The position numbers were made by a program, and so were the translations under genes. 64,000 bases of DNA from Clostridia bacterium. Its GTDB lineage: Bacteria > Bacillota > Clostridia > TANB77 > CAG-465. The notes under the pieces were generated by a model that searched no databases, was not told the origin of the DNA, and saw nothing but the letters and a program-made list of their open reading frames with translations. Shown in pieces: positions 8,966-56,915 of the stretch. Location: the NCBI GenBank assembly GCA_045611765.1, contig JAZKXT010000012.1, forward strand, positions 119,440 to 183,439, in the 5' to 3' direction. Positions within the stretch are counted from its first letter, which is position 1. Every line of letters starts with the position of its first letter.

Positions 8966-9642
8966 TGAAAGTAATAGACAACGAACTTATTGAAGTACAT
9001 AAAATAGGATTAGAGATAGAAAATACAGGACATATAACAAATTGCTATATTATAAAAGAAAAGGAAACATCAAAAGTTTGTGTAATAGACCCGGCTTTTG
9101 ATAATAAAAAAATAGAACAAACAATAAAAGAAATAAATGGAACGCTAGACACAGTGATTGCAACTCACTGTCATGCTGACCATATAGCTGCACTTATTAA
9201 TCTTGTAGAAGATACAAATACTAAAGTATATATACATGAACAAGATTATGAAGGGCTATATAATAAAGAGCTTAATGCAGAAGAAATAGTTGGTACTAAA
9301 ATATTGCCTATAGAAAAAGAAAAAGTATTAAAATGTAATGAAAAAGACAAAATAACATTTGGAGGTACTGTACTAGAAGTTATACATACACCAGGGCATA
9401 CTAAAGGTTCTATAACGCTTTATGACGAAAAGAATAACATACTTTATTCTGGTGATACAATATTCGCAAATTCCTACGGTAGAACAGACCTTGTGAATGG
9501 GAGTCGTGAGGAAATGAAAGAAACTTTAGACAAATTGTTTGATAGATTTGAGGATATACAAGTGTTTTCTGGTCATGGTGAAGAATTTAATTTAAAAAAT
9601 GCTAAAAGAAGAATAAGATTATTATTTGCGTATAAGGGCTAA
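8965..9642 (+). CDS. MBL-fold metallo-hydrolase
   Basis: 225 aa with the metallo-beta-lactamase motif THCHADH and a downstream TPGHTKGS. The start overlaps the relA stop codon. Confidence 0.8.
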   Translation: MKVIDNELIEVHKIGLEIENTGHITNCYIIKEKETSKVCVIDPAFDNKKIEQTIKEINGTLDTVIATHCHADHIAALINLVEDTNTKVYIHEQDYEGLYNKELNAEEIVGTKILPIEKEKVLKCNEKDKITFGGTVLEVIHTPGHTKGSITLYDEKNNILYSGDTIFANSYGRTDLVNGSREEMKETLDKLFDRFEDIQVFSGHGEEFNLKNAKRRIRLLFAYKG

Positions 9643-21004: not shown

Positions 21005-23473
21005 CTAATCTTTCTTATCAGTTCCAGTATCTATTACGATATCGAAATCATCGTTATTTAAATCAAATGTTTTAATTGCTTCGTTTAATTCGTCGTTTTC
21101 CATAATAGCAGGTGGATTATCAGTATCGTTATGTGGAAGCTCTTGAGTTGCCACAGGATTTTCTACAAATCTTTCTTCAGATATTGAAGGAGTTCCAAAT
21201 GAATCAAATATATTATCATTATCTTCTTCCATAATATAAGCTGTTGGGCTTGTAGCAGTGCTACTAGAAAATCCACTAGATATAGGTTTGTTGATCATAA
21301 ACTTTTCAAAGTTATACATATATGCTGGATGCTTTTGTTTATACTTATCTTCTAAGAAACCAACTTTTCCTTCTCCGAACACTGTATTACCGTTAGGAGC
21401 TTTAGTTTTGTAATAGATATATCCGAACTTGTGCTCTGCAATTTTGTGTACTTTAAATCTTTCTTTATCTTTAACTTGTACAGATTTTTTAGCTTTAAAA
21501 TTACCGTCTAGAGGGTCGAAGCTAGAGGACATATCCACTTTCTTCGCCATACCAAATGCTTTATTCCAATATTCACTGTCTTCAGGAGTTGTATCGCCAA
21601 ATACAATTTGAGTTTTTGTATTTGCTAAAACCACTTCTCTATAATATTCCATACCTTTATGTTTCTCAAGTTGAGATAAGTTTTGGATTGCAATCATCGC
21701 TCCACATCTGTATTTTCTGAATAATGTAAACATTACTTCAGTATCCTTATTGATGTATTCTGGGAATTCATCAACAAACAAGAAGTGTGGTATACGAGAA
21801 TCTTCTGAACCAGGTCTTCTTAGTACTGCGTCTTGGAATTGAAGTATAAAGAACATACCAAATGCTTTAGATGCGATTATACCAAGTTCGCCTTTTCTAG
21901 AACATGCAGTTATAACTTGACCTTCACGTAAAGCTTTATCGAAATCGATTACGTTAGTTCTACCACAAAGCGCTTTCTTAATACCAGGATGTCTTAACAA
22001 GTTATTAAGTTGTGTAATAGCACCATATAGATATCTTTCAGTATCTTTTCTTCCGCTGCCACGAGTACCAGGTATTTCAAATCCGTTTATATTCAAACTT
22101 GGTTTATAGAAATTCTTTTCAAAGTACGCAATAAGCAGTTTGTATTTTTCAGCAAGTTCTGGTATTTTCTTCATATCTTCTGTCATTTCTTCAACTTTAT
22201 CAAAGTTATATAGTAAGTCTAATACGTCTTCTAATGATGGAAGTTCACCATTGTGAAGTCTAGGATACATTTCTTTAAGTAGTATAGATAAGTTTTGGAA
22301 TGCATCCGAAGTTAGGTTTGCAAAGAAAGCTTCTTCTTTTGCGCCTTCGCTTTGTTGCATAGATTTTAAAACATCGGCAATTATTGATGCTACTTTGGCT
22401 GGGTCATTAATTGCAAATGGATTCATACTTAAAGTGTGCTCTGGATCAGCAGGGTCTATTGTTAATACTTCGATATCAAAGTTTTTAGCAACGTTTGTGA
22501 AATCTGAAACATATTTACCATCGTTTTCAACAACTGTTATACCAACATTTCTAAAAACAACTTCTCCAGTAGAATCATTTTTATATAATATTAAATCTTC
22601 TAGTTCTTTGTAAAATTCTTTTTCTTTTCCCTTTTTAGGAAGCAAGTAATTTAAGTTGAAGTTTAAATTAATATATTCGTTAGAGTATGGCCCTACGATG
22701 TAAGCGACTCCTCTTTTTAATAATCCGAAAGCAAGTTTTTTAGAGTATTCTCTTAAGAAATATTTTTTCTCAAGGTCTCTTGAACTCATAGGAAGTAATA
22801 CGGCAGCTGTTTTACCTGTACCAGTAGCACCTTGTACAAGAGTAGCTTCCATTCTTTTCTTCTCTGAAACTACAACTGGTTTTAAAGTGTCTACATCTTT
22901 ACAGATTATATTTTCACAAGTAAATATTCCTTTATCTGCTTTAGGTTTTGAAACGGATAATCCACCAAAACCAATAATACCTTTCGTTATGTCTTCATCT
23001 CTTAATATTAGTAGGAAATAATCTATCATATAGAATATTCCAATGAATGGTACTACAAATGATACGGTTTTTATAGCTGGTGCAAATAACTCTGGATATT
23101 CTGATCTAATTAATGAATAATTAGGAACTTTTTCAAGAAGCATCCAAACCACTTTATTAATATTTGTAATTAATAATGATGCAGCAATAGAGCCAAATAT
23201 TCCAACAGTTATCATAAACCATTTTATACGAGCATCTTTACCAGAGATAAGCTTTGTATTTACTGCGTATGAATAACATAGCACAGGACAAATCAAAGCG
23301 GCGGCGTAGGTAATAGGTCCTGGTAAAAAGGCAAGTCTTCCATCGCTTATAATAAGCGTTACAAATTGTACCAAAACAAAAGCTGTTACGACTAATGTCA
23401 AAATGCCAAATAATACGGCAAGGAATTTGTTTTGGTCTTTAATTTTTAATTTACTAAGTATATTGTATAACAA
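21005..23473 (-). CDS. VirD4/TraG/TraD-type type IV coupling protein-like membrane ATPase (orphan)
   Basis: 822 aa with about 4 N-terminal TM helices. Walker A is LVQGATGTGKTAAV and Walker B is HFLFVDEFPEY. A T4CP-typical stretch reads AMIAIQNLSQLEKHKG..TKTQIVFGDTTPEDSEYWNKAFG. There is an acidic C-terminal tail. The start codon is TTG. Confidence 0.7.
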   Translation of the reverse strand: MLYNILSKLKIKDQNKFLAVLFGILTLVVTAFVLVQFVTLIISDGRLAFLPGPITYAAALICPVLCYSYAVNTKLISGKDARIKWFMITVGIFGSIAASLLITNINKVVWMLLEKVPNYSLIRSEYPELFAPAIKTVSFVVPFIGIFYMIDYFLLILRDEDITKGIIGFGGLSVSKPKADKGIFTCENIICKDVDTLKPVVVSEKKRMEATLVQGATGTGKTAAVLLPMSSRDLEKKYFLREYSKKLAFGLLKRGVAYIVGPYSNEYINLNFNLNYLLPKKGKEKEFYKELEDLILYKNDSTGEVVFRNVGITVVENDGKYVSDFTNVAKNFDIEVLTIDPADPEHTLSMNPFAINDPAKVASIIADVLKSMQQSEGAKEEAFFANLTSDAFQNLSILLKEMYPRLHNGELPSLEDVLDLLYNFDKVEEMTEDMKKIPELAEKYKLLIAYFEKNFYKPSLNINGFEIPGTRGSGRKDTERYLYGAITQLNNLLRHPGIKKALCGRTNVIDFDKALREGQVITACSRKGELGIIASKAFGMFFILQFQDAVLRRPGSEDSRIPHFLFVDEFPEYINKDTEVMFTLFRKYRCGAMIAIQNLSQLEKHKGMEYYREVVLANTKTQIVFGDTTPEDSEYWNKAFGMAKKVDMSSSFDPLDGNFKAKKSVQVKDKERFKVHKIAEHKFGYIYYKTKAPNGNTVFGEGKVGFLEDKYKQKHPAYMYNFEKFMINKPISSGFSSSTATSPTAYIMEEDNDNIFDSFGTPSISEERFVENPVATQELPHNDTDNPPAIMENDELNEAIKTFDLNNDDFDIVIDTGTDKKD

Positions 23474-30646: not shown

Positions 30647-33379
30647 GTGATTAAATTACCAAAGAAATTTAAATGGGGTTCAAAAATATTTGGTATATCT
30701 ATAGCACTTTTATTTATGTTAAATAGTACAGAGGCAAGTATAAGAAAAGATTTGCCTGTGTCAAAAGTGTCGGACGAATTTCCGGAGACGTACCAACTAT
30801 ATATAGATAAATTAAAAGAGAGATATCCTACAGCGACATTTAAAGCTGTATACACTGGTTTGGATTGGAACTTAGTATTAAAACATGAAAGCTATGAGGT
30901 AAAAAAGGGAATTAGTTTGGTGCCAAGTAGTTATTCAACAGTATGGAAGAAAGATGGAAAAAACATATATATGGATGGCAACTTTGTAGTAGCATCAAAA
31001 AGTGCAGTAGCATACGTACTTGATCCAAGAAATTCCTTGTATGAAAAAACAGTATTTCAGTTCGAAGGTCTTTCATACAATCCAAATATAACGACGGATG
31101 TAATAGAAAAAGTAATGAGTTCATCACCAATGATAGGGTCATATTCTAATAAGTATAAAAATGCTGGACAATGGATAGAGATGGACATGTCTTACGCAGA
31201 TATTATACATAAAGTAGGGGAAGAACAAGGTGTTAGTAGTGTATATATTGCTTCAAGATTAATACAAGAAACATCAGGAGACATTGTAAACAATGGCAGT
31301 ATTAACGGCTCGAATGTGACATATCCAGGGGTATACAATTTCTTTAATATTGGTGCTACACCGAATGCAGATGGAACGGGCGCGGTTTTAAATGGTTTAA
31401 AATATGCCAAGTCGCAAGGATGGACAAATCCGTATTTTGCTATATCCGGTGGAGTAAGTGAGATAAAAAATTCATATATAAAATATGGTCAAGATACAGT
31501 ATATTTCCAAAAATTCGATGTTAATAATCCGTATGGTAATGCGAGCGCGCTTATGGCGTATCAATACCAAACTAACATAATGGCTCCTACAAGTGAGAGT
31601 TTAATATCTTATAGGGCATATAGTAAATTAGATATGCTAGATGCAGCTTTTACATTCTACATTCCAGTATACAACAACATGCCACAAGACCCTACGCCAT
31701 ATCCTGCTGGAGATACAGCAAAGTTTGAGGTAGACAACACTAAAGTATACTTAGATGATACAACAGATAGTGGTAAAGAAATATTTAATATTCGTTCTTC
31801 AGCAAATGCTGAGCTAGATAATATAATATATACAATAACAGAAACTTCAGAAGATGCAAATGAAAGAACAATATTAACTAGAACACAAAAAGGAAATGGC
31901 TATGACTGGGATTATGTAGAAGTTAAAATTGATGGTAAAACTGTTAAGGGATATGTATGGAAAGACTATGTACAAACATACCAATATACAAAAGTAGAGA
32001 GTGTTTCTTTAGATAAGACGGAAATTACAATAGAAGAGGATGAAACATTAAAATTGGTAGCGACGGTAATGCCAGAAGGTGCTAGGTTTAAAGAAATAAT
32101 ATGGGCATCTTCACATAACAATATAGTAACTGTGGAAAATGGAGAGATAAAAGGTGTTGGTGTGGGAACAGCAACTATAACAGCTGCAACTGAAGATCAA
32201 GGTAAAATAGCAGTGTGTCAAGTTACTGTAAATGAGAAACCATATGACATGACATTAGATAAGGATGCATATACAGTAGAAGCTGGATGTCAAATAACAC
32301 CAACAGTAACGCTAAAAAAAGTGGAACAATATACACTAACAGTTGCAGATGAAAATATTGCAAAAGTAATAGATAATAAAACTATAGAAGGCTTGGCTGA
32401 AGGAGAAACAACAATTGAGGTGCGTGCTGTAGGGGTTGAACTTGTAAAAACAGCAAAACTTACAGTAACTCCAAAAGAATATTTAATAATAACGGATAAA
32501 GAGGAATATACTGTAGAAGTAGAAAGTACAACAACTCCAACTGTTACTTTGAAAAATATACAAGGTTATACATTAGAGATAGTAGATACAACTATAGCAT
32601 TGCTAGAAGACAAGACTATAAAGGGAATAAAGGCAGGAGAAACGACTTTAAGAATATTAGGTATTGGTACAGAAATGGTCAAAGAAGTGAAGTTAATAGT
32701 ATCTCCTAAGGAACAAAAAATAACTTTAGATAAGCAAGAATATATTATAAGAATAGGTGAAACTGTAACGCCAGAAATTACGCTTAAAAACATAGAAGGA
32801 TATACTTTAGAGGTATTAGATACAACTATAGCGACTGTAGAAGATAAAACTGTAAAAGGTGTAGTGGCAGGCGAGACAATATTAAGAGTGCTAGGGATAG
32901 ATACAGAAATTGTTAAAGAGGTAAAATTAACAGTACTACCAAATGAAAGTTATACATTAGACGAAAGTATAAAATTAGATGTTGAAACTAAACAAATTTC
33001 AGGAATATCTGAGGCAACGAAAGTTTCGGATGTTAAGTCGAAAATAAAGATTGAAGGATTAAATGTTAAGTTCAAAGATATTAATAATAATGAACTAACA
33101 GATGAATCTTTAATAGGAACTGGAACAATAATAGCATTCTTAAGAGAAGATAATACGGAATATGATAAACTAACGGTTGTTGTATATGGAGATGTAAACG
33201 GTGACGGTTACATATTTGCAAACGACTATGTATTAATAAAAAATTATATAATGGGTGAAGGCGATTTGACTAGCATAGGTAAAACCGCAGCAGATGTTAG
33301 TAGAGATACGTATGTATATGCAAATGATTATGTACTAATAAAAAATTATATAATGGGTGAAGGAAGTATCACTCAGTAA
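30647..33379 (+). CDS. Secreted multidomain cell-wall hydrolase: GH73-type N-acetylglucosaminidase, SH3-like domain, Big_2 Ig-like domain, three tandem 78-80-aa repeats, C-terminal type I dockerin
   Basis: GTG start and a signal-anchor. The glucosaminidase motif reads ASRLIQETSGD...YNFFNIGA. The Big_2-like stretch reads GTATITAATEDQGKIAVCQVTV. The dockerin reads GDVNGDGYIFANDYVLIKNYIMGEG plus a second degenerate segment. Confidence 0.75.
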   Translation: MIKLPKKFKWGSKIFGISIALLFMLNSTEASIRKDLPVSKVSDEFPETYQLYIDKLKERYPTATFKAVYTGLDWNLVLKHESYEVKKGISLVPSSYSTVWKKDGKNIYMDGNFVVASKSAVAYVLDPRNSLYEKTVFQFEGLSYNPNITTDVIEKVMSSSPMIGSYSNKYKNAGQWIEMDMSYADIIHKVGEEQGVSSVYIASRLIQETSGDIVNNGSINGSNVTYPGVYNFFNIGATPNADGTGAVLNGLKYAKSQGWTNPYFAISGGVSEIKNSYIKYGQDTVYFQKFDVNNPYGNASALMAYQYQTNIMAPTSESLISYRAYSKLDMLDAAFTFYIPVYNNMPQDPTPYPAGDTAKFEVDNTKVYLDDTTDSGKEIFNIRSSANAELDNIIYTITETSEDANERTILTRTQKGNGYDWDYVEVKIDGKTVKGYVWKDYVQTYQYTKVESVSLDKTEITIEEDETLKLVATVMPEGARFKEIIWASSHNNIVTVENGEIKGVGVGTATITAATEDQGKIAVCQVTVNEKPYDMTLDKDAYTVEAGCQITPTVTLKKVEQYTLTVADENIAKVIDNKTIEGLAEGETTIEVRAVGVELVKTAKLTVTPKEYLIITDKEEYTVEVESTTTPTVTLKNIQGYTLEIVDTTIALLEDKTIKGIKAGETTLRILGIGTEMVKEVKLIVSPKEQKITLDKQEYIIRIGETVTPEITLKNIEGYTLEVLDTTIATVEDKTVKGVVAGETILRVLGIDTEIVKEVKLTVLPNESYTLDESIKLDVETKQISGISEATKVSDVKSKIKIEGLNVKFKDINNNELTDESLIGTGTIIAFLREDNTEYDKLTVVVYGDVNGDGYIFANDYVLIKNYIMGEGDLTSIGKTAADVSRDTYVYANDYVLIKNYIMGEGSITQ
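32237..32947 (+). repeat. Three tandem coding repeats (234-240 bp each) inside the autolysin gene
   Basis: The peptide units are LDK.EYTVE....TPTVTLKN..GYTLE..DTTIA..EDKT.KG..AGETT.R.LG...E.VKEVKL.V.PKE. Unit boundaries are at about 32237, 32479 and 32714. Confidence 0.85.
33188..33376 (+). other. Dockerin type I module (two Ca-binding loop/helix segments)
   Basis: GDVNGDGYIFANDYVLIKNYIMG is followed by ADVSRDTYVYANDYVLIKNYIMG. The DNA units at 33218-33262 and 33320-33364 are near-identical and offset by 102 nt. Confidence 0.7.
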
Positions 33380-33394
33380 GAAAGGAATATAGTA

Positions 33395-34549
33395 ATGAAG
33401 AAAATATTTATGATATTAGTGATGTGTGTGTGTTTCATATTTATAGGGAACGTATATGCTGCAAATGTAACGTTATCTGGTTCTTCAACTGGTACACCGG
33501 GCAAGAAAATAACTATTACAGTAAAAGGCGATTTTACAGGCAGAGTAAATTTAAATGCAAATAATGGTACTTTAAGTAAAAGCAGTGTTTGGATAGAAAA
33601 CAATTCTCAAACAGTTACAGTTACTTTGGGGAATAGTGGAAGCACAGTGGTAACGGCAACACCGGCAACAGGCGCATCAGATAAGGACGGAAATATAATA
33701 ACAGTATCAGCAAAGAGTAAAACGATAACAATATCTCAGCCAACTACTACGGGAGATAAAGAGACTACAACAACTACAAAGTCTTCAAATTGTAACTTGT
33801 CTAAAATATCTTTAAGCGTGGAAGGGTTAAGTTTTAAATCTAGTCAAACAACATACAATATAAAGGTTGGACCTGATGTAGATAATATAACTGTAAAAGC
33901 GACGCCAGCTCATTCTAGAGCAACATATACCGTAAGTGGCAATAAGAACTTAAAAGCAGGAAACAATGTTATAAAGATTGTTGTAAGAGCAGAAAATGGT
34001 GCTACAAAAACATATAAAATAAATGTAGAAAAAGCGGGAGATATAGAAGATACAAGTGCGGAGCTTTCTAACCTAATAATAGAGGATATGACATTAGATA
34101 AACCTTTTGCACCCACAGAAACAGAATATACTGGCAGCAAAATGAAGTATACACAAAGGTTAAATATTTTACCATATACGGTTTCAGAAAAGGCAACATA
34201 TGAAATACTAGGAAACGAAGATTTTAAAGAGGGTGAAAATACAATTATTATAAAAGTAACTTCATTTGATGGTACAAACGAATTAGAGTATAAGGTTACT
34301 TTTGAGATGATGTCTGAGCAAGAAACAAATGCGCTTCAAATAGTACAGCCGAATGATAATAATATTGGAAGTGCAATTATGAATGAAAAGACAGAAAAAA
34401 CATTTTGGGATTTGGTAGCTGAAAATTCAACAATTATTTTGTTATATTTATTAGCTTTAGTTGAATTTGGTCAAGTGATATATCTATATGTACAATTACA
34501 GAGCGTCAATCCAGATTCTCTAAAAGTAAAAAGACGTAGACAAAAATAA
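33395..34549 (+). CDS. Surface protein: signal peptide, about 95-aa beta-rich N-domain, two cadherin-like beta-sandwich domains, C-terminal TM anchor
   Basis: NLSKISLSVEGLSFKSSQTTYNIKV...GNNVIKIVVRAENGATKTYKINV and LSNLIIEDMTLDKPFAPTETEYT...GENTIIIKVTSFDGTNELEYKVT fit the cadherin-like beta-sandwich family pattern. There is a hydrophobic helix plus KVKRRRQK at the C-terminus. Confidence 0.65.
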   Translation: MKKIFMILVMCVCFIFIGNVYAANVTLSGSSTGTPGKKITITVKGDFTGRVNLNANNGTLSKSSVWIENNSQTVTVTLGNSGSTVVTATPATGASDKDGNIITVSAKSKTITISQPTTTGDKETTTTTKSSNCNLSKISLSVEGLSFKSSQTTYNIKVGPDVDNITVKATPAHSRATYTVSGNKNLKAGNNVIKIVVRAENGATKTYKINVEKAGDIEDTSAELSNLIIEDMTLDKPFAPTETEYTGSKMKYTQRLNILPYTVSEKATYEILGNEDFKEGENTIIIKVTSFDGTNELEYKVTFEMMSEQETNALQIVQPNDNNIGSAIMNEKTEKTFWDLVAENSTIILLYLLALVEFGQVIYLYVQLQSVNPDSLKVKRRRQK

Positions 34550-44200: not shown

Positions 44201-45130
44201 CTATTTATCTTTCATAACTTCTTTAGCAGCGCCTAGTGCACCAAATGCTGAACTTACATCGAATGGAACGAACACTTTGTTTGCAGGTCCTTCAGCTATT
44301 TTTTCCATTGATTCTAAAGCTTTAATCGTAACAAGTTCTTTTGTAGGTTTAGCTTTAGTAATAGCGCCATAAACCATTTCAATCTCTTGCGATTTAGCTT
44401 CAGCAATTTTCTTTATAGCTTCAGATGTACCTTCAGCTTCTAGTATTCTTGCTTCTCTTAAACCTTGCGCGCGTCTAATACTTGCTTCGCGTTCAGCTTC
44501 AGCTTCAAGTATTTGAGCTTGTTTTTTACCTTCAGCGTGAGTTATATCTGCTTGACGATTACCTTCAGCTTCAAGTATGATTGCTCTTTTATTTCTTTCA
44601 GCATTCATTTGTTTTTCCATTGCATCACGAATATCTTTTGGTGGATTAATATCTTTAATTTCCACTCTGTCTACTTTACAACCCCATTTGTCTGTTGCTT
44701 CATCAAGAACTTCACGAAGTTGTATGTTTATCATATCACGTGAACTAAATGTACTATCCAAATCCATTTTACCAACTATATCACGAATAGTTGTAATTGC
44801 AAGGTATGCGATACCTTTTTGTAAGTTTTCTATTTCATAAACAGATTTTACTGGATCCATTATTTGAAAGAAAACAACTGTGTCTATTGTTATAGTAACG
44901 TTATCTTTTGTTATAACTCCTTGTGGTGGCACATCCATTGTTTGTTGCTTCATGTTAACTATTGCTCTTACTCTATCTATAAAAGGTAGAATGATGTTAA
45001 GTCCGGCATCAGCAACTTTGTGGAATTTACCAAATCTTTCTATAACATAAACTTCTGCTTGTCTTACGACTTTAATTGAGAATGCGGCTATTACAAATAT
45101 AATAACCAAAGGTATAAAGAATAATTCCAT
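44201..45130 (-). CDS. SPFH/band-7 (stomatin-like) membrane-scaffold protein
   Basis: N-terminal TM helix, SPFH core (VVRQAEVYVIERFGKF...TKDNV...), and an Ala/Glu-rich coiled-coil tail. Confidence 0.88.
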   Translation of the reverse strand: MELFFIPLVIIFVIAAFSIKVVRQAEVYVIERFGKFHKVADAGLNIILPFIDRVRAIVNMKQQTMDVPPQGVITKDNVTITIDTVVFFQIMDPVKSVYEIENLQKGIAYLAITTIRDIVGKMDLDSTFSSRDMINIQLREVLDEATDKWGCKVDRVEIKDINPPKDIRDAMEKQMNAERNKRAIILEAEGNRQADITHAEGKKQAQILEAEAEREASIRRAQGLREARILEAEGTSEAIKKIAEAKSQEIEMVYGAITKAKPTKELVTIKALESMEKIAEGPANKVFVPFDVSSAFGALGAAKEVMKDK

Positions 45131-45141
45131 ATATTTCCCTC

Positions 45142-45576
45142 CTATTCTGAAATTTCTTTAACAACAAGTTTTACTCCGGATATTGCAACAACAGTTATTT
45201 TACTGTCTCTTGCAATAATTGTGTCATCTTCACATATAGCTGACCAAATTTCGCCAGCAACTTTTACTTGACCCAAATGACTATCTCCACAAATTTCTTT
45301 TAGCACAATACCACTTTTGCCTATTAAAGCGTTGGAGTTCATGGCGACATCACGAGTCTTGAAAAGTTTTGCTACAATAGGGCGGATAAACAGTATCATA
45401 AGAGCAGTAGTAACTGCGAATATAACACATTGTACTGTTGTGCTTGCTCCTAAAATGGCAGCTATAAATGCGAAAAATGCACCAACACCAGGGAAAAACA
45501 TTAAAAAACTTACGGTGAATATCTCGGTAATGAGGCATAATCCACACAAAATCAACCACATAGTAGATAATGACAT
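45142..45576 (-). CDS. NfeD-family membrane protein
   Basis: 144 aa with three TM helices plus a C-terminal OB-fold-like segment (GQVKVAGEIWSA). It is in the classical upstream position relative to the SPFH gene. Confidence 0.8.
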   Translation of the reverse strand: MSLSTMWLILCGLCLITEIFTVSFLMFFPGVGAFFAFIAAILGASTTVQCVIFAVTTALMILFIRPIVAKLFKTRDVAMNSNALIGKSGIVLKEICGDSHLGQVKVAGEIWSAICEDDTIIARDSKITVVAISGVKLVVKEISE

Positions 45577-45668: not shown

Positions 45669-47252
45669 ATGTATAATTTGGATATGAAAAAGGTAATAAA
45701 AAGCAAAGTAATAGATGTATTAAGAAAATATAAATATTATATATTTCTTACGTTAATAATATTTATATTATTTTCTGTGTCTAAATATTCTAGTGTAGGC
45801 AAAGAATATGAGTTGTATATAAATGATATTAAAGTTACTGCAAATAATGATATATATACATATAACGAAGAAGTATATCTACATATAGATGATTTAACAC
45901 ATATTTTTAGTGATAATATATATTATGAAAAACTATCTGGCAAATTAATTATAACAACATATGATAAGGTGCATAAATATGCGGTATATGGTAGTGAATA
46001 TATAATAGAAAATAATAATGCTAAGTATTGCAATATTCAACATTTTATGACAGAATTAGAATATAACGTAATAGAGAATAAAAACAAGATATATATTGTT
46101 TCTGGCCAAAATGTAGAGGGAACTGTATTAAAGAATAGAACAGAAATTTACGATAAAACAAACAATAATGTTATTTGTCATTTGGAAAAAGACAGTATTG
46201 TTAATGTGTATAATTCAGAAAACAATTTAAATAAAGACAAAATGTTAACAGTTGAAGCAATAGTTGATGGCACAAAGTATTATGGATATGTTTTGAGTAA
46301 AAACATTGAGTATCAAAAGCCTCAACAAAAAGCTGAGAAGAACAATAATAAAGTTATAATAGTTAAAGCAGAAGAAAAATTGGCGACAAACGATTTATCT
46401 AATGTAGACATGGTTGCCATTAGTTTGTATAGACTTTCGGGTGAGAGAAATTTAGTTAAGCTAGATAACACGTATAATATACCTAAAAATAAAAAAGTGT
46501 TAGTTACAATAAATAATGGTCAAAAGTCTAGTAATTACGACAAAAATATTATTTCTAGAATGCTTGGCAGCGAAGCCAACAGAAATGAGATTGTTGTTCA
46601 AATAATGGAGTTGGTAAAGCTATATGAGGGAATAAACCTAGATTTTAGCAATTTCAAAGTTACAGATAAAGAAAATTACACTCAGTTCATAAAAGAACTT
46701 GCAGCGTCTTTACATGCAATAAATAAAATATTGGTAGTTAACGTGCCAAGTATTCAGTATATTGATTGCGAGCAGGTAGCTAAAGTAGTGGATTATCTTG
46801 TTATACAACCATATAATGAGAGGACTCAGGCTTCAAAAATAAGCGGACCAATATCTTCAATAAAATATGTTGAAGATTGGATACAAAATATTATAAATGA
46901 AAAAGTAGATTCTAACAAAATTATTTTAGAGGTGCCAGCTTATACAATATTATGGACTGAAAGAAACGGTACCGTAATTAATGCGGAGCAATATACAATG
47001 AAGACTATGCTGGAATATTTAAAAGCAAATAATATTCAAATGAGCAGGGATAACTCATCAAAGCAAAACCATATGATTTACACAAAGGGAATAACAACAT
47101 ATAAAATGTGGTTAGAGGACGAGTATAGTATTATAGAGAAAACCAAACTAGCAAGTAAATACAATTTAGTAGGCATTTCTTTATATAAAAGCGGTATGGA
47201 ACAAGATTTTATATATGGTAAAATAGAGTTGGAGTTAAATAAAACAAAGTAG
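45669..47252 (+). CDS. Membrane-anchored GH18-like (chitinase/YaaH-like fold) protein, predicted catalytically inactive
   Basis: TM anchor, then a copper-amine-oxidase-N-like/SH3-like region. The GH18-like core reads YEGINLDFSNF in place of the DGxDxDxE motif (Ser at 46647-46649 where the catalytic Glu is expected), followed by VDYLVIQPYNE and ILEVPAYTILW. An alternative start exists at 45684. Confidence 0.5.
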   Translation: MYNLDMKKVIKSKVIDVLRKYKYYIFLTLIIFILFSVSKYSSVGKEYELYINDIKVTANNDIYTYNEEVYLHIDDLTHIFSDNIYYEKLSGKLIITTYDKVHKYAVYGSEYIIENNNAKYCNIQHFMTELEYNVIENKNKIYIVSGQNVEGTVLKNRTEIYDKTNNNVICHLEKDSIVNVYNSENNLNKDKMLTVEAIVDGTKYYGYVLSKNIEYQKPQQKAEKNNNKVIIVKAEEKLATNDLSNVDMVAISLYRLSGERNLVKLDNTYNIPKNKKVLVTINNGQKSSNYDKNIISRMLGSEANRNEIVVQIMELVKLYEGINLDFSNFKVTDKENYTQFIKELAASLHAINKILVVNVPSIQYIDCEQVAKVVDYLVIQPYNERTQASKISGPISSIKYVEDWIQNIINEKVDSNKIILEVPAYTILWTERNGTVINAEQYTMKTMLEYLKANNIQMSRDNSSKQNHMIYTKGITTYKMWLEDEYSIIEKTKLASKYNLVGISLYKSGMEQDFIYGKIELELNKTK

Positions 47253-47261
47253 GAGGTAAAT

Positions 47262-47714
47262 GTGAAAAAAGGAATATCTTTAGTAGAAATAGTAATCACG
47301 GTAGTACTATTAACCATTTTAGCTGGAGTTATTATATTTAGTTCTACAGATACAATTGAGGGAGTAGATAAATCTAAACTTAAGATGGATATAGCTCAGA
47401 TAGAAGCTTTAATGAATACGTATAATATCCGAAAAAACGGCAACATTCAATTTGAGACTGTAAAATTTGTAACCTCAAACCTTTCTGCGGAAGAACTAAA
47501 TCAATTTGATGGTGAGACAATTACAGCAAACAGCATAACACTATATGTTGTAGATTTAGCTGAAATTGATGTTGATGAAGTTAGTTATGGCAATTTAAAA
47601 CTCGGACAAGATGACAGATATTTATATTCTCAGACAACTGGGAAGGTATATTATGAAAAAGGATTAGAGATAGATAATATTAGATATTACTATGTAACAA
47701 ATGGAGATAGATAG
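47262..47714 (+). CDS. Type IV pilin/pseudopilin-like protein (prepilin-type N-terminal cleavage/methylation signal)
   Basis: GTG start 5 nt after AGGAGG. The N-terminus MKKG|ISLVEIVITVVLLTILAGVIIF has Gly at -1, Glu at +5 and a hydrophobic helix. Confidence 0.75.
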   Translation: MKKGISLVEIVITVVLLTILAGVIIFSSTDTIEGVDKSKLKMDIAQIEALMNTYNIRKNGNIQFETVKFVTSNLSAEELNQFDGETITANSITLYVVDLAEIDVDEVSYGNLKLGQDDRYLYSQTTGKVYYEKGLEIDNIRYYYVTNGDR

Positions 47715-47716
47715 TT

Positions 47717-49813
47717 ATGATGAAAAAACAAGGTATAACGATTACTATGTTGGTTGTAACGATTATATTAATGATAATTATAGCAGGAACAATAAGTTTT
47801 TCTATGTATTCAACAATAGAGTATTCAAGAATGTCAGCATGGGCAAATGAAATAATGTATATACAAGATGTGGTAGATGAAAATCTAAATTCTACTTCGG
47901 CAACAGAGTTCACATCTGGAGTTATTAGCATGAGTGTAGATCGTATAAACGCTGCGCAAAATCAATTTGAAGGTGAAAATATAAATGAATCCAATACACT
48001 TGAACTTAGAATTTTGGAATTAGGAAAACTAAAAATAACAACTACTAATTATGGTAATTTAGAAACTGAAACAGACGTGTATGCATTGTCTGAAACAACA
48101 GGAAAAGTATATTATGTAAGAGGAATTGAAGCGGATGAGGAGATATATTATACATTAACTGAAAGTCTAAGAAATAGGTATGAATTAACTCCAACACAAA
48201 ACGAGTTGGCTTCAGTAGTATTTGTTCCAAATACAATAAGCTATACAAACAATCCTGTACAAGTAACAGTAAAATTACCAAATACGTATACAAACATTAC
48301 AATTATTACATCTAATAATGAGATAGTTATTGGCGCGCAACAAGTACAAGAAAGCACGTATGAGTATTTAGTAAATGGTAATGGGATAGCGGGAAATTAC
48401 ATTATTACAGTATCATATAACAATGGAACAGAGCAACTAACGTCTACATACCAAGTAAAATCCTATGATGTTGAGAAACCAGTAATAGATGAAATAAAAT
48501 ACGAAAATATAGTCTACAAAGAAACAGATACACAAAAGGTAGAATATTTGACAAATATTACTGCAACAGATAATTCTGGTATAAAAGTAATAAAATATGC
48601 ATTGGGTGAAATAGCAGAAGAAAATGCCAAAGAATATTTTAGTCAAAATGGAACAACTGTATCAAATGATAGAATAAACTTAAATAGAGAGGCAACTGTG
48701 TATACAGTATATGTCGAAGATAAAGCAGGCAACTTTGCAATAACCACTTTCGATAAAAAGTATTTAGTTCCAGAAAGTTGGAAAGCAAGTATATGGTATA
48801 TTCAAGATAGAGTGCCAATACCAAAAGGTTTTGTAGCATCCGAAGCTACAGGCGAAAACACAAAAAATGGTGGCCTTGTAATATACGAAGGAACAACACC
48901 AGTAACTGACGCAAATGTAGAAGAGGCCAAAAGAGAAAGAAATCAATATGTATGGGTGCCAGTTTCTAACTCGACATTTGAAACTCAATTTGTAAGAAGA
49001 TTCCACACAGATATTTCTAACGAATTAGGTACTAATCTTTGGGAGATAGTACTAGATAAAAATACAAATATGCCGCTTGATGAGCAAGATGAACAATATG
49101 TATCTGCAACAACGTTAAAGGAAGCAAAAGCTATGTATTCTAGTGTGAAAAAATATGGTGGGTTTTATGTAGCACGTTATGAAGCGGGAATAGATAAAGC
49201 AAGAACTAGAAGTGACGTTAATTTGGAAGAAAAAATATATTCTATGATGGGGAAAATTCCGTACACTTATGTTATATGGGGTGAATCCATGGACAATGAA
49301 AAAGGCGGATCAGTAGAAGCTTCAAGAAACATATATCCTGCAGATAGTACAAATTATAGAGTAGTATCTACTTTAATATACGGTGTACAATGGGATACAA
49401 CTTTGCAGTGGATGCTAGATACTAAAGCCTTACCAAGTATAGATGAAAGCATAAATTATGGTAATTATAAAGCAAGTGTAATAAAAAGCGGAGACTTAAA
49501 TGAAGGGGCAAGATATGCTCTGTATAGTGATGAAGGAATACAAGAATACAAAGATGCTACTGGACTAACTAAAGAATCATCTACAATGTGGAGTTTAAGC
49601 ACGGGAGCTTTAAAATATGCCAAGATAAATAATATCTATGATATGGCTGGAAATATATACGAAAGAACAATGGAAGGCGCTTATACAAATGCACATTGTT
49701 TTCGTGGTGCCTCTTGGTATGGTACATATCCAATATCAGCTAGAGCGCAGTGGGCTACTATAGATATTATCGGTCCGGATTATGGCTTCCGTGTGGCATT
49801 ATACATAAAATGA
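47717..49813 (+). CDS. Large pilin-like protein (no Glu5) with Ig-like middle region and a C-terminal FGE-sulfatase (SUMF1)-like domain
   Basis: The N-terminus MMKKQG|ITITMLVVTIILMIIIAGTISF is pilin-like but has Met at +5. The C-terminal motifs FYVARYEAG, IYGVQWDTTLQW, NIYDMAGNIYERT, FRGASWYG and GFRVALY (about 49150-49810) parallel the FGE-sulfatase domain pattern. Confidence 0.65.
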   Translation: MMKKQGITITMLVVTIILMIIIAGTISFSMYSTIEYSRMSAWANEIMYIQDVVDENLNSTSATEFTSGVISMSVDRINAAQNQFEGENINESNTLELRILELGKLKITTTNYGNLETETDVYALSETTGKVYYVRGIEADEEIYYTLTESLRNRYELTPTQNELASVVFVPNTISYTNNPVQVTVKLPNTYTNITIITSNNEIVIGAQQVQESTYEYLVNGNGIAGNYIITVSYNNGTEQLTSTYQVKSYDVEKPVIDEIKYENIVYKETDTQKVEYLTNITATDNSGIKVIKYALGEIAEENAKEYFSQNGTTVSNDRINLNREATVYTVYVEDKAGNFAITTFDKKYLVPESWKASIWYIQDRVPIPKGFVASEATGENTKNGGLVIYEGTTPVTDANVEEAKRERNQYVWVPVSNSTFETQFVRRFHTDISNELGTNLWEIVLDKNTNMPLDEQDEQYVSATTLKEAKAMYSSVKKYGGFYVARYEAGIDKARTRSDVNLEEKIYSMMGKIPYTYVIWGESMDNEKGGSVEASRNIYPADSTNYRVVSTLIYGVQWDTTLQWMLDTKALPSIDESINYGNYKASVIKSGDLNEGARYALYSDEGIQEYKDATGLTKESSTMWSLSTGALKYAKINNIYDMAGNIYERTMEGAYTNAHCFRGASWYGTYPISARAQWATIDIIGPDYGFRVALYIK

Positions 49814-54274: not shown

Positions 54275-55363
54275 ATGAAAGGATTTTTTGAAAGACAATG
54301 GGATTTATTCCTAAACGACATGCAAGAGGTAGGAGAATTTTTCTTGAACGCATTCGGCGCCAACGAACAATTAATGTTAGATGCTCCTAAATCAGCTGAA
54401 CCTAAAGAAGGTTTCTTTGCAAGAGAATGGAGATTATTTTTGCAAGACATGCAAGATTGTGGAGAAATGATAATGAGTGCCTTTGGATTCGAAGACGACA
54501 AATTATTATTAGATGCTCCAGATGAAGCAAAAGTAGAAGATAGACCAGGCTTCTTTAAAAGAGAATGGGAACTATTTAAAACAGATTTAGACAATGCCAA
54601 CACAGCGTTAGAAAACTTGTTTGGCATTGAAAAAAAAAATGATGTAATTTTTGAACAAGCTTCTGAACCAGTATATTTAAAAGATGAAGTGGACTTGAAA
54701 CTAGAGTCATTTCTTGGAGAACCAATAGATGAGTTGAAAGAAAGTGCTTGCGGAGATAGAACACAACATGAAGTGCTTCGTGAGTATGCAACATTCTTTA
54801 AACCATATTCTGAAAATCCAGAAATGTGTCAAGCAGCATTTAAAAAATACTATGACAGACACGCGTTAAAAATGGCAGTAAACGAATTTCCAGTAGACCA
54901 AGTTAGAATAATCCAAAACAATGTGGATATATTCATAAAAGACCAAGAAATGTTTGGCGAAGGTGGACAATTTATAGATTCAAGAGTTGACACTGTATTT
55001 GAAAAAGCTGGAATAGATGAAGTAAACAAAATGGTAGGAATACTAAGCAATACTTTAACTGACGGAAAAAATCTACAAGGTGAAAGATTATTTGCTGAAG
55101 CAGTAAGTCACATGGTAGATAACGGAATTAAAGTAGGCAAAGATAAGTCTTTAGTAGCACCAGTTAAAAAATCTCTTGAAGCAAAATTGGATGAAGTTCA
55201 TAACTCTTTAAGAGCGCATGAAGATTGGAATGAAGACTACCAAGCTTTACTTTCTCAAGAAAGAAAATATTTATATGCTTTAAATAGAATAGAGCAATAT
55301 GAAACAGAACAAAGAATATCTGAATTCGAATCAAAATTAAACGAATTAGATGTTATAGTTTAG
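54275..55363 (+). CDS. Hypothetical protein with three N-terminal ~45-aa tandem repeats
   Basis: 362 aa with a good RBS (AGAGGTG). The repeats are GFF.R.W.LF..D....[GA]......FG.....L.LDAP. No family recognised. Confidence 0.6.
   Translation: MKGFFERQWDLFLNDMQEVGEFFLNAFGANEQLMLDAPKSAEPKEGFFAREWRLFLQDMQDCGEMIMSAFGFEDDKLLLDAPDEAKVEDRPGFFKREWELFKTDLDNANTALENLFGIEKKNDVIFEQASEPVYLKDEVDLKLESFLGEPIDELKESACGDRTQHEVLREYATFFKPYSENPEMCQAAFKKYYDRHALKMAVNEFPVDQVRIIQNNVDIFIKDQEMFGEGGQFIDSRVDTVFEKAGIDEVNKMVGILSNTLTDGKNLQGERLFAEAVSHMVDNGIKVGKDKSLVAPVKKSLEAKLDEVHNSLRAHEDWNEDYQALLSQERKYLYALNRIEQYETEQRISEFESKLNELDVIV
54281..54670 (+). repeat. Three tandem coding repeats (129-138 bp units) at the 5' end of the 54275 gene
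   Basis: Units start at 54281, 54410 and 54548 and encode GFFERQWDLFLNDMQ.., GFFAREWRLFLQDMQ.. and GFFKREWELFKTDLD.. Confidence 0.8.
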
Positions 55364-55505: not shown

Positions 55506-56915
55506 ATGAGAGTTGAATTAAAAGTACAAAAAGATGGCGTAAATACGCTAAAAGATGAGATACTATCACATAGTAATAGCAAACTAAAGAAAATATATAT
55601 CTTAGCTAGCGATATTAAAGAAACCGGCTATGATATAGTAGAGGAGTGTTTAATAGATTTAAAGGCAAGAAAATTTATAGCTTTAGGAATAGATAGGAAA
55701 AATACAACAAGAAAAATGCTTGAAAATGTTCTTAAATATACAAAGAATGTATATGTTTGGGATAATAACGCAGACGTAGAAATAAATGTAAGTATTTTTG
55801 TTTTTGAATATGAAGATGAAGGTATAGTTTACCTAGTTCAAGGTGGACTTACAGATAGTATGTTAGAAACAGACGTATCTATTTATACAAAACTTACATA
55901 TGACTTAATAAAAGATAAAAAAGAGTATGAAGAATATATAGATGGCATGACAAAACTAGTTAAAGAGAACTTGGTAAAATTGGAGAAAGCATATATAGAC
56001 GAACTTGCAGAGAACAAATTAATATTTACAACTAAACAATATATGCATGTTGTTCCAAGTATCGCAGAACTTTTAGGTAAAAAAGATGACGAAAAATTAG
56101 CACAAGTTGAAGAGGCTCCAAAGAAACTTCCAAAAGTGGAACTAGATGTTAATGAGTTAGATGCCTTTGAAATAGACTTAGGTGATGTGGCAGAAGTGGA
56201 AATAGAAATGGAAGAACCAGCTATTATTGAACAAGTTGAAGAAGGAAATGAAGAGCAAGTAGCAAATGCGGCTTTTGAATTAGCTGAGGAAGGTTTTACA
56301 GACGAAGCTGAAGAAGAATATGTAATTTCTGATGAAGTTATAGATATGGAGTCTTTAGTTCTTGAAAGTAAAGTTGTTAGGCTAGATAAAGGAGATATAC
56401 AAAAAGCTAAAAAGAAAGACGATACAGTCAAAGAGTCAGAAAAACAAACTTCTAAAAAGATAAAATTAGACAAAGTTTCTAATATAATAATGGAGCTTGC
56501 ATCAAAACCAACCAAAGGAAAAGATGTAAATAAAATAAAAGTACCAAACTATATTAAAGATATGGTACCGCAATTCTTTGAAATAATGGATGATGCTAAA
56601 CTTTTAAAAACAGATGATGGGGAATACAAGGAAGCTGTAGTTAAGCTTGAAATAATAGACGTAAATAATGGAATTAAACTTGTAGATGGCGAAGCTAAAA
56701 TTAAACAAAAAGTAGGTCAGACATATATAGAGTTTGAAACGGATAAATTAATAGATGTAGCGTATGAAGAATTAGATATAGCAAGGGTTATAAAACTTGC
56801 TAAGGATTATTATCACATAGAAATAATTCCTCAAGGAATAGAAGAATATAACTTATGGGATAAAATGTGTACAAACAGTTTTAGGGGAAGTAGTAGACAA
56901 TACGGACTTATGTAA
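55506..56915 (+). CDS. Hypothetical acidic protein: N-terminal degenerate PLD-like domain, acidic linker, C-terminal domain
   Basis: 469 aa with a good RBS (AAGGTGGAG). The N-terminal pattern IALGIDRKNTT....VEINVSIFVFEYEDEGIVYLVQGGLTDSML resembles a PLD/NucT-type fold (FHxKxYxF...GSxNLT) but lacks the His and Lys. This assignment is by eye only. Confidence 0.5.
   Translation: MRVELKVQKDGVNTLKDEILSHSNSKLKKIYILASDIKETGYDIVEECLIDLKARKFIALGIDRKNTTRKMLENVLKYTKNVYVWDNNADVEINVSIFVFEYEDEGIVYLVQGGLTDSMLETDVSIYTKLTYDLIKDKKEYEEYIDGMTKLVKENLVKLEKAYIDELAENKLIFTTKQYMHVVPSIAELLGKKDDEKLAQVEEAPKKLPKVELDVNELDAFEIDLGDVAEVEIEMEEPAIIEQVEEGNEEQVANAAFELAEEGFTDEAEEEYVISDEVIDMESLVLESKVVRLDKGDIQKAKKKDDTVKESEKQTSKKIKLDKVSNIIMELASKPTKGKDVNKIKVPNYIKDMVPQFFEIMDDAKLLKTDDGEYKEAVVKLEIIDVNNGIKLVDGEAKIKQKVGQTYIEFETDKLIDVAYEELDIARVIKLAKDYYHIEIIPQGIEEYNLWDKMCTNSFRGSSRQYGLM

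Follow-up and report, generated by a model that had tools for sequence, protein, structure and literature searches.

A conserved three-gene operon of uncultured gut Clostridia encoding a GH18 pseudo-glycosidase, a stand-alone pilin module and a predicted modular type IV pilin with a lectin-fold head

Three co-directional genes in a conserved neighbourhood

A 64,000-nucleotide stretch of DNA from a Clostridia bacterium (NCBI GenBank assembly GCA_045611765.1, contig JAZKXT010000012.1), called the window hereafter, contains a candidate operon of three co-directional open reading frames (ORFs) on the + strand (Table 1). ORF1 encodes a protein of glycoside hydrolase family 18 (GH18), ORF2 a small protein with a pilin-like N-terminus, and ORF3 a large protein in which a similar N-terminus is followed by Ig-like domains and a globular head. 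The spacers are 9 nt (ORF1/ORF2) and 2 nt (ORF2/ORF3) long, in agreement with a preliminary description of the same DNA, whose quoted protein motifs were likewise all found in the translations; a simple scan of the + strand yielded no credible terminator between the genes. The start codon of ORF2 is a GTG, six bases 3′ of an AGGAGG site, and the true start of ORF1 is probably its second methionine at position 45684 (MKKVIKS...), because orthologues begin there and the public gene call for ORF1 has 522 aa.

The expectation that the three genes would be conserved together was borne out. The trio is present in at least six relatives (related loci L001, L003/L004, L005, L011, L091 and L092), and in L001, L003/L004, L005 and L091 it lies between the NfeD/Band7 genes and rpsO. 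On the 5-kb contig of L092, NfeD is upstream and the contig ends just past the large pilin; in L011, the trio is kept despite an ORF1 of only 27% identity and a different downstream flank. In most relatives the wider neighbourhood (SBP_bac_5, Band7, NfeD, rpsO and an ATPase) is syntenic as a whole. Judged by this gene order and conservation, the three genes form a conserved operon; the host is an uncultured gut Clostridium that forms spores and has a low GC content.

Conservation of the genes does not extend to the end of ORF3. The large pilins of L091 and L092 keep the pilin and Ig-like part and have a different head, which matches DUF285 in one of them and has no Pfam match on record in the other. 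The head has thus been swapped within an orthologous trio while the pilin module, ORF2 and the GH18 gene were retained. Across the relatives, the pilin module carries DUF285, dockerin or other heads.

Table 1. Features of the three-gene operon and of the pilD-like genes of relatives. Positions are those of the window or, where an L number is given, of that related locus.
Feature	Position	Strand	Description
ORF1	45669..47252	+	527 aa; YaaH-type GH18 protein on a membrane anchor, catalytically dead
GH18 catalytic motif GINLDFS	46629..46649	+	Ser327 replaces the acid/base Glu (translation and alignment)
ORF2	47262..47714	+	150 aa; stand-alone pilin module, likely partner minor pilin
ORF3	47717..49813	+	698 aa; pilin module, two Ig-like domains and head
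ORF3 pilin module, aa 1-150	47717..48166	+	basic leader, Gly6 at -1, ~50-residue alpha1, small beta-sheet
ORF3 spacer, aa ~160-348	48194..48760	+	two Ig-like beta-sandwiches (strand pattern of the AF2 model)
ORF3 head, aa 350-698	48764..49810	+	C-type-lectin fold, FGE subtype; AF2 pLDDT 95.5
Most variable ORF3 stretch, aa ~655-692 (AYTNAHCFRGASWYGTYPISARAQWATIDIIGPDYG)	49679..49792	+	matches the position of the variable region in target proteins of diversity-generating retroelements
pilD-like gene	L002 6958-7761; L085 16014-16814; L086 16152-16955		266-280 aa, A24_N_bact only
pilD-like gene	L045 ~5889-6725; L088 8552-9394		266-280 aa, A24_N_bact only

ORF2 and ORF3 share one pilin module

Both proteins have the form of a class III signal, with a short basic leader, Gly at position -1 and about 20 hydrophobic residues. 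ORF2 begins MKKG/ISLVE (MKKG/ISLVEIVITVVLLTILAGVII) and ORF3 begins MMKKQG/ITITM (MMKKQG/ITITMLVVTIILMIIIAGTIS), where the slash follows the Gly at -1; among the real genes of the window, these are the only two class-III-like N-termini. All 42 ORF3 orthologues (Gly6) and all 35 ORF2-type proteins compared have the Gly at -1. Over its whole length ORF2 aligns with residues 1-150 of ORF3 (34% identity, E 6e-23), and by this homology ORF2 is a free copy (paralogue) of the pilin carrier module of ORF3. The AF2 model of ORF3 (pLDDT 87) has a 51-residue helix from residue 9 to 59, followed by strands up to residue 144. The module family comprises 424 representatives at 50% clustering, in proteins of 143 to 1300 aa, and the module is always N-terminal.

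Profile comparisons support the assignment of this module to the type IV pilins. In particular, a profile of the 35 ORF2-type proteins matches geopilin (3.7e-6), GspG (5.6e-6), Streptococcus sanguinis PilE1 (2.2e-5) and about 20 further solved type IV pilins, and the alignments to GspG and PilE1 reach positions 68 and 72, past the hydrophobic N-terminal stretch. The N-terminal profile of ORF3 gave only marginal matches, to MshA, PilE1 and GspG.

Three smaller observations concern the same module. In L003/L004, the start of the ORF2 orthologue (ATGAAAATAAAAAAACGG..., at ~9546-9600) is out of frame with the pilin helix owing to one extra A in an A7 run, and the extra-A sequence is identical in contigs from two different metagenomes; the frame break could be an assembly error or a slippage-based switch. 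The protein P0255, considered as a fusion of GH18 and ORF2, was rejected, as it is not similar to ORF1 and appears to be a chimeric gene call. Further, among short paralogues that carry the C-type-lectin head described below (e.g. P0049 and P0052), the N-terminal ~110 residues match an archaeal flagellin best (5o4u, E 0.002), ahead of bacterial pilins, in keeping with a signal of archaeal style that lacks Glu5.

Glu5 is missing from the family

The residue at position +5 after the Gly is Glu in ORF2 and Met in ORF3. Glu5 is normally near-invariant in bacterial pilins, and the known exceptions are GspK, S. sanguinis PilA and archaeal pilins. The preliminary description had accordingly treated ORF2 as the canonical pilin and ORF3 as a Glu5-less, GspK-type exception, and the comparison with relatives reverses this: the ORF2 orthologues read V, V, S and I at +5, and an acidic residue occurs there in none of 86 class-III-like N-termini from 84 related loci and in none of 135 family representatives. 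By these sequences, the Glu5 of ORF2 is the exception, unique to this genome. Since the whole family lacks Glu5, the Met5 of ORF3 therefore carries no information on a position at the tip or as a cap.

ORF3 does resemble the GspK-type capping pseudopilins in being a large, minor pilin-like protein that lacks Glu5. However, GspK has an alpha-domain inserted into its pilin fold, whereas the extra domains of ORF3 are appended at the C-terminus, and as the residue is missing throughout the ORF3 family, its lack is not diagnostic of a cap.

Pilus machinery is encoded elsewhere in related genomes

The window itself contains no pilus machinery: tblastn searches with a relative's PilM, PilD-like, PilB, PilT and PilC proteins found nothing in the 64 kb, the sole match being a chance one (E 0.005), and no pilB, pilT, pilC, pilD or pilM gene is present, in line with the earlier statement on pilB, pilC, pilD and pilMNO. 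In the related loci L002, L085 and L086, a full-length large pilin of the ORF3 family is located directly upstream of a pilus cluster. The cluster begins with Asp23, a PilM/N-like gene and two genes for small membrane proteins; next come two pilin genes (133-137 aa and 144 aa) with the pilD-like gene between them, then a gene for a protein of 58 aa, and finally PilB, PilT and PilC. These cluster-linked copies of the large pilin have no GH18 gene upstream. In L088, two genes occupy the slot upstream of the cluster: the first joins an ORF3-like pilin module to a dockerin head, and the second encodes an ORF2-like pilin of 150 aa. In L045, a protein with the C-type-lectin head is encoded between the pilD-like gene and pilB.

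The assembly GCA_054278095.1 contains both elements on separate contigs, L091 with the syntenic trio and L002 with the PilB/PilT/PilC cluster. The same arrangement, a trio with a separate pilus cluster, is predicted by analogy for the genome from which the window comes.

Several proteins of the relatives' clusters deserve separate mention. Small candidate major pilins of 106-137 aa (L002 6387-6788, L088 8061-8381, L085 15442-15855) have Val at +5, those of L002 and L088 reading MKKG/ISLIV...; if they make up the bulk of the filament, Glu5 would be lacking from it throughout. The dockerin pilin of L088 (2816-4612) consists of an ORF3-like module, an Ig-like region and a type I dockerin in 444 aa, which suggests that cohesin-bearing partners could dock onto the pilus. 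The C-terminal half of the pilD-like proteins (Table 1) is pilin-like, with K-A/K-G before AINVD, AISVE or VFNIE, a hydrophobic helix and then a beta domain of ~100 aa, and it is the only class-III-like segment with an acidic +5 residue found in the relatives' lineage.

The clusters also bear on the proposal of a short pseudopilus of the type II secretion kind, with ORF2 as its canonical major pseudopilin and ORF3 as its Glu5-less, GspK-type cap. ORF2 does have Glu5 and matches the GspG model best, 14 of 35 ORF2-type proteins match TIGR01710 at E<=0.01, and ORF3 lacks Glu5. However, the Glu5 of ORF2 is confined to this genome, ORF3 has no GspK-like alpha-domain insertion and carries its extra domains at the C-terminus, and the relatives' clusters encode small candidate major pilins of their own together with PilT. 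A short pseudopilus, as first suggested for this locus, appears less likely than a true pilus because the clusters include a PilT-type ATPase, and we regard the pseudopilus as improbable.

The head of ORF3 has a C-type-lectin fold of the FGE subtype

Beyond the pilin module, the strand pattern of the ORF3 model indicates two Ig-like domains, and single ORF3 orthologues match Big_13 and DUF7743 in this region. When the full-length model was used in Foldseek, tandem Ig/FnIII matches dominated and masked the head, which was for this reason modelled alone for the fold search. The top PDB matches of the head were TvpA, CarF, TaqVP, PorK, PvdO, FGE, Mtd and EgtB (E 1.7e-4 to 5e-2), and a viral structure library returned a SUMF-like phage protein and tail fibres. 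At the sequence level, the C-terminal part of ORF3 contains the motifs FYVARYEAG, IYGVQWDTTLQW, NIYDMAGNIYERT, FRGASWYG and GFRVALY; a family profile of the head matches SUMF2 (1y4j) at 4e-5 in an alignment limited to the last ~60 residues, and PF03781 is matched by 13 of 42 ORF3 orthologues (best 7e-7), with ORF3 itself having no Pfam match. The head model, these fold matches and the profile results support the C-type-lectin fold of the FGE subtype, in line with the earlier recognition of an FGE-type C-terminal domain.

That description had named both an enzyme and a ligand-binding domain as possible. Formylglycine-generating enzymes proper have a conserved catalytic Cys pair that binds copper. 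Across 42 orthologues and 68 paralogues of the ORF3 head there is no invariant or near-invariant Cys and no invariant His, and the single Cys of ORF3 (HCFRG) falls in its hypervariable stretch; the copper-binding Cys pair of FGE is therefore absent. The best fold matches include the non-enzymatic binders TvpA, TaqVP, PorK and phage fibres, the region corresponding to the functional surface is hypervariable, and the head can be exchanged for leucine-rich-repeat (LRR) or dockerin modules. Membership of the head in the FGE-sulfatase superfamily by both sequence and fold is what speaks for a surface-displayed enzyme of the FGE/EgtB/PvdO superfamily, for which ORF1 would supply or bind the substrate; set against the points above, this possibility is remote. 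The model-based prediction is a ligand-binding domain, an enzyme being unlikely.

The C-type-lectin head is widespread, with more than 521 matches among species-representative genomes and up to about nine copies per genome, all in uncultured gut Clostridia (sheep, rabbit, chicken, human). Most of these heads follow short, Glu5-less, pilin-like N-termini, and some follow plain transmembrane (TM) anchors.

A hypervariable surface at the position targeted by diversity-generating retroelements

The last ~40 residues of ORF3 before GFRVALY are its most variable part: with a column entropy of 2.5-3.0 bits, they are the highest of the whole protein in both the orthologue and the paralogue alignment. 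In a paralogue, the same stretch is subject to targeted mutagenesis. The pilin-like protein with a C-type-lectin head in L083 (751-2079) is the target of a diversity-generating retroelement (DGR), with its variable region at 1950-2069 in the C-terminal stretch that corresponds to aa ~655-692 of ORF3 and its template repeat at 3582-3701. Between the two repeats, of which 11 of 13 mismatches fall at template adenines, lie an Avd-like gene (2153-2524) and a reverse transcriptase with the motifs IGNYTSQ and YMDD; the N-terminal part of the reverse transcriptase is in another frame, which points to a frameshift or an assembly error. Of 91 paralogues scanned, L083 was the one true case, and L020 was rejected as a look-alike whose mismatches are not adenine-specific.

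ORF3 was rejected as a DGR target at the present locus. Searches of the window with the last 330 nt of ORF3 (blastn with short words and a repeat search) found no template repeat, with chance matches of at most 24 nt, and no reverse transcriptase was found among the 20 larger ORFs of the window scanned against Pfam. The variability of ORF3 is therefore evolutionary and not a sign of ongoing mutagenesis. The DGR variable proteins TvpA (2y3c), TaqVP (5vf4) and Mtd, together with phage receptor-binding fibres, are nonetheless the best structural matches of the head, and they too have their variable surface at the C-terminus, with the pilin-anchored paralogue in L083 as a real target. ORF3 differs from them in lacking a template repeat in the 64 kb, in a head ~80 aa larger than TvpA and in TM-scores of 0.23-0.40, which are low and support the fold class only. 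The DGR- and phage-type fold matches, the lack of a conserved Cys, the variable C-terminal surface, the DGR-targeted paralogue and the head swaps support the head as a predicted binder.

ORF1 belongs to a group of pseudo-glycosidases

ORF1 has an N-terminal TM anchor, a middle region and a GH18 barrel at aa ~260-510 (Glyco_hydro_18, PF00704, 2e-19 over aa 260-510). The middle region corresponds to Cu_amine_oxidN1 and SH3_3 in distant homologues, which carry PF07833, PF08239 and PF00704 and are named YaaH by some sources. The closest solved sequences, with matches reaching 3e-14, are the probable chitinase 5jh8, Bacillus subtilis YdhD (3cz8) and the spore cortical-lytic enzyme 4s3j.

The GINLDFS motif of ORF1 aligns column for column with GINVDFE (5jh8), GVTIDFE (3cz8) and GINLDFE (4q6t), and because it aligns on these solved catalytic motifs, the acid/base Glu of ORF1 is identified as replaced by Ser327. 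The missing Glu had been noted before; the loss in fact spans the entire orthologue group (proteins of about 520 aa with 33-56% identity), in which the position is Ser in 13, Gly in 13, Lys in 11, Ala in 5 and Thr in 4 members and Glu in none of 46. More distant homologues keep the Glu in 59 of 61 cases. By sequence comparison, ORF1 is thus a conserved pseudo-glycosidase that descends from GH18 enzymes of the wall or spore type and is held at the membrane by its N-terminal helix.

Two known groups resemble it. The GH18 spore peptidoglycan hydrolases YaaH, SleL and YdhD include the nearest structures (YdhD 3cz8, and 4s3j), and the distant homologues of ORF1 share the layout of Cu_amine_oxidN1, SH3_3 and GH18 as well as the YaaH name. 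The chi-lectins are catalytically inactive GH18 proteins whose acid/base Glu is gone, as in ORF1. Unlike either group, ORF1 carries a TM anchor at its N-terminus, lacks a LysM domain and is operonic with pilin genes, and its glycan binding is a prediction. ORF1 would no longer be able to hydrolyse and most likely binds a glycan that contains GlcNAc, either the cell's own peptidoglycan, where it might help the pilus or the large subunit at the wall, or an external target.

Whether ORF1 belongs with the pilins at all is a closer question. It may instead be a YaaH relic of the wall or spore whose only tie to the pilins is the conserved housekeeping neighbourhood. The synteny of the whole neighbourhood in most relatives fits such a relic, as does the absence of an upstream GH18 gene from the pilin copies linked to pilus clusters. 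On the other hand, ORF1 lies on the same strand as ORF2, 9 nt away and with no terminator in between; the trio is kept in L011 despite the changed downstream flank and the divergence of its ORF1; and the loss of the Glu coincides exactly with the orthologue group associated with the trio. On balance, an unrelated ORF1 is a serious possibility, though the less probable of the two, and a role in which ORF1 serves the pilins at the wall or on a target is proposed only tentatively.

A modular pilin with a predicted adhesive head

The explanation that we favour, with moderate confidence, is that ORF3 is a modular type IV pilin with an adhesive lectin-fold head, ORF2 its partner minor pilin and ORF1 a glycan-binding pseudo-enzyme. 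ORF2 and ORF3 would be subunits of a type IV pilus assembled by the products of genes elsewhere in the genome, among them the extension (PilB-type) and retraction (PilT-type) ATPases, the platform protein PilC and PilM/N-like proteins. After cleavage of its leader, the tri-modular ORF3 would be anchored in the filament by its lineage-specific pilin module, with the two Ig-like domains as a stalk and the 350-aa head binding a ligand through its hypervariable C-terminal surface. ORF2 would most likely pair with the pilin module of ORF3 and so hold this bulky protein in the filament, with the tip or its vicinity as the probable site. Such a pairing would parallel that in S. sanguinis, where PilA stabilises the lectin pilin PilC and the pair has been modelled at the pilus tip (Shahin et al. 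2023, PMC9934059).

A number of points weigh against this explanation. The preliminary description had expected the N-termini to be recognised by profile hidden Markov models; a family profile does match solved type IV pilins, but ORF2 by itself scores 16.4 bits against N_methyl PF07963, below the curated cut-off of 21.2, and 11.7 bits against TIGR02532 (cut-off 16.3), its match to the GspG model (E 1.5e-4) covers the N-terminus only, and ORF3 has no match to any Pfam or NCBIfam model, the pilin-signal models included. The family-wide absence of Glu5 weakens membership in the type IV pilins without excluding it. The pilD-like gene of the relatives encodes the A24 N-terminal Zn-finger domain only (1e-29), with no Peptidase_A24 match and no GxGD motif, and a scan for GxGD[FIV]K across 88 related loci and the window gave one match, to an unrelated protein; as no canonical prepilin peptidase was identified in the lineage, cleavage of the leader is inferred. 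Further, GCA_054278095.1 is a metagenome bin whose two contigs could in principle come from different strains, the TM-scores of the head are low, and in some proteins the head follows a plain TM anchor that lacks the Gly motif, so that the head does not need a pilus. Finally, ORF1 is linked to the pilins by gene adjacency alone, and the NfeD/Band7 pair next door is equally conserved.

Many of these points are shared by the main alternative, that ORF2 and ORF3 are surface proteins on an uncleaved N-terminal helix, or form a non-filamentous, bindosome-like layer, with the class-III-like N-terminus as a lineage-specific anchor. The sub-threshold pilin-signal scores, the missing Glu5, the lack of a recognisable A24 peptidase domain in the relatives' clusters, the sister proteins on plain TM anchors and the archaellin match of the short paralogues all agree with an anchor of this kind; archaeal class III signals are likewise without Glu5 and serve bindosome proteins (PMC3047682). 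However, the Gly at -1 is invariant, which would be needless for a simple anchor, and the profile matches to bacterial type IV pilins extend beyond the hydrophobic helix. In addition, the genes occur repeatedly in or beside PilB/PilT/PilC clusters, and a PilT-type retraction ATPase implies a dynamic filament. Overall, a non-filamentous anchor or layer seems unlikely, and incorporation into a type IV pilus is preferred.

Relation to known modular pilins

A modular pilin, in the sense of Raynaud et al. (2021, PMC8179133), is an N-terminal pilin module joined to a functional module of a kind not restricted to pilus biology. ORF3 fits this definition, with its pilin module (residues 1-150), two Ig-like domains and C-type-lectin/FGE head. 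The domain combination, which had at first seemed absent from described pilus systems, has already been catalogued: Dataset S1 of Raynaud et al. (2021, PMC8179133) lists 8 proteins with the architecture IPR012902-IPR005532 (pilin motif and SUMF domain), all uncharacterised. No described adhesin that combines pilin and FGE domains was found in the literature beyond that dataset. The catalogued proteins, like ORF3, have an N-terminal prepilin motif followed by an FGE domain; unlike them, ORF3 has an Ig-like stalk and a lineage-specific pilin module. They were found through IPR012902, a signature that ORF3 and most of its relatives do not match, and the present family was probably invisible to the 2021 survey because it lacks Glu5 and Pfam or NCBIfam matches.

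The closest parallel is the PilA-PilC pair of S. sanguinis. In both cases a small minor pilin is encoded beside a large modular pilin in a monoderm, the large protein has the order pilin, Ig-like region (two domains in ORF3) and lectin or lectin-fold module, and one partner has a degenerate, Glu5-less signal that standard tools miss. The systems differ in the fold of the head, which is of the C-type-lectin/FGE kind in ORF3 and a concanavalin-like lectin or vWA domain in the modular pilins of S. sanguinis, and in the small partner, which resembles GspI in the case of PilA but is a paralogue of the large protein's pilin module in the case of ORF2. Unlike in S. sanguinis, the ORF2 and ORF3 genes lie outside a pilus cluster, a dead GH18 gene leads the operon, Glu5 is missing in the whole family and not in one subunit, and the trio is known from sequence and models alone. 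By this comparison, the trio is a variation on the theme of modular type IV pilins and no new kind of system.

Modular pilins are a recently recognised route to a multifunctional simple filament, and few have been characterised, S. sanguinis PilB and PilC among them. In the present family the principle is seen on a large scale, in abundant, uncultured Clostridia of the animal and human gut; because they lack Glu5, the family's proteins are annotated as hypothetical and missed by signature-based surveys. Within one locus, the carrier module, the partner pilin and the dead GH18 protein are retained while the head is swapped, and the family connects type IV pili to variable binding heads of the DGR and phage-fibre type. 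It also raises the question of how Glu5-less pilins are processed and packed when no prepilin peptidase is obvious. A practical use is a profile for an adhesin class that annotators currently miss.

The wider interest lies in lineage-wide features: the Glu5-less pilins, the exchangeable heads including dockerin, the DGR-targeted member and the truncated PilD. In a more far-reaching reading, which we consider rather doubtful, a lineage of uncultured gut Clostridia runs a Glu5-less type IV pilus whose PilD is reduced to a Zn-finger and a pilin-like segment with an acidic +5 residue, and which displays a large set of exchangeable heads on a single carrier module, some of them hypermutated by DGRs; the trio with the dead GH18 gene would be its conserved chromosomal core member. 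The exchangeable heads would comprise the C-type-lectin/FGE fold (up to about nine paralogues per genome), dockerin and BspA-type LRR modules. If this is true, the displayed heads would amount to an antibody-like, pilus-borne repertoire of adhesins, and the pseudo-glycosidase would be a dedicated factor for passage through the wall or a co-receptor.

Genomic setting and other features of the window

The window has a low GC content of about 31% and is ordinary chromosome of a spore-former, with housekeeping and spore genes for RecJ, RelA, Tgt, SpoIVA, Obg, HrcA, DnaK, DnaJ and SMC. Downstream of the operon, rpsO lies at a distance of 119 nt and has its own extended -10 box (TGGTATAAT). On the other side, the NfeD/Band7 (SPFH) pair at 44201-45576 (- strand) is divergent from ORF1 and adjoins the trio in every complete trio locus, including that of the distant L011; its position could be a coincidence or reflect a link to membrane microdomains.

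Further away, the ORF at 30647-33379 encodes a secreted protein of 910 aa with Big_2 and a C-terminal type I dockerin, by which the organism has surface assemblies of the cohesin-dockerin type; directly after it, 33395-34549 encodes a 384-aa protein with a cadherin-like domain. A TraG/VirD4-like coupling protein of 821 aa (T4SS-DNA_transf, TraG-D_C; 21005-23473, - strand) is located among housekeeping genes and may be the remnant of an integrated conjugative element. Finally, the ORFs at 54275-55363 (362 aa) and 55506-56915 (469 aa), which have no Pfam match, form a conserved gene pair between rhodanese/thioredoxin genes and SMC, and this pair is syntenic in L001, L003 and L005.

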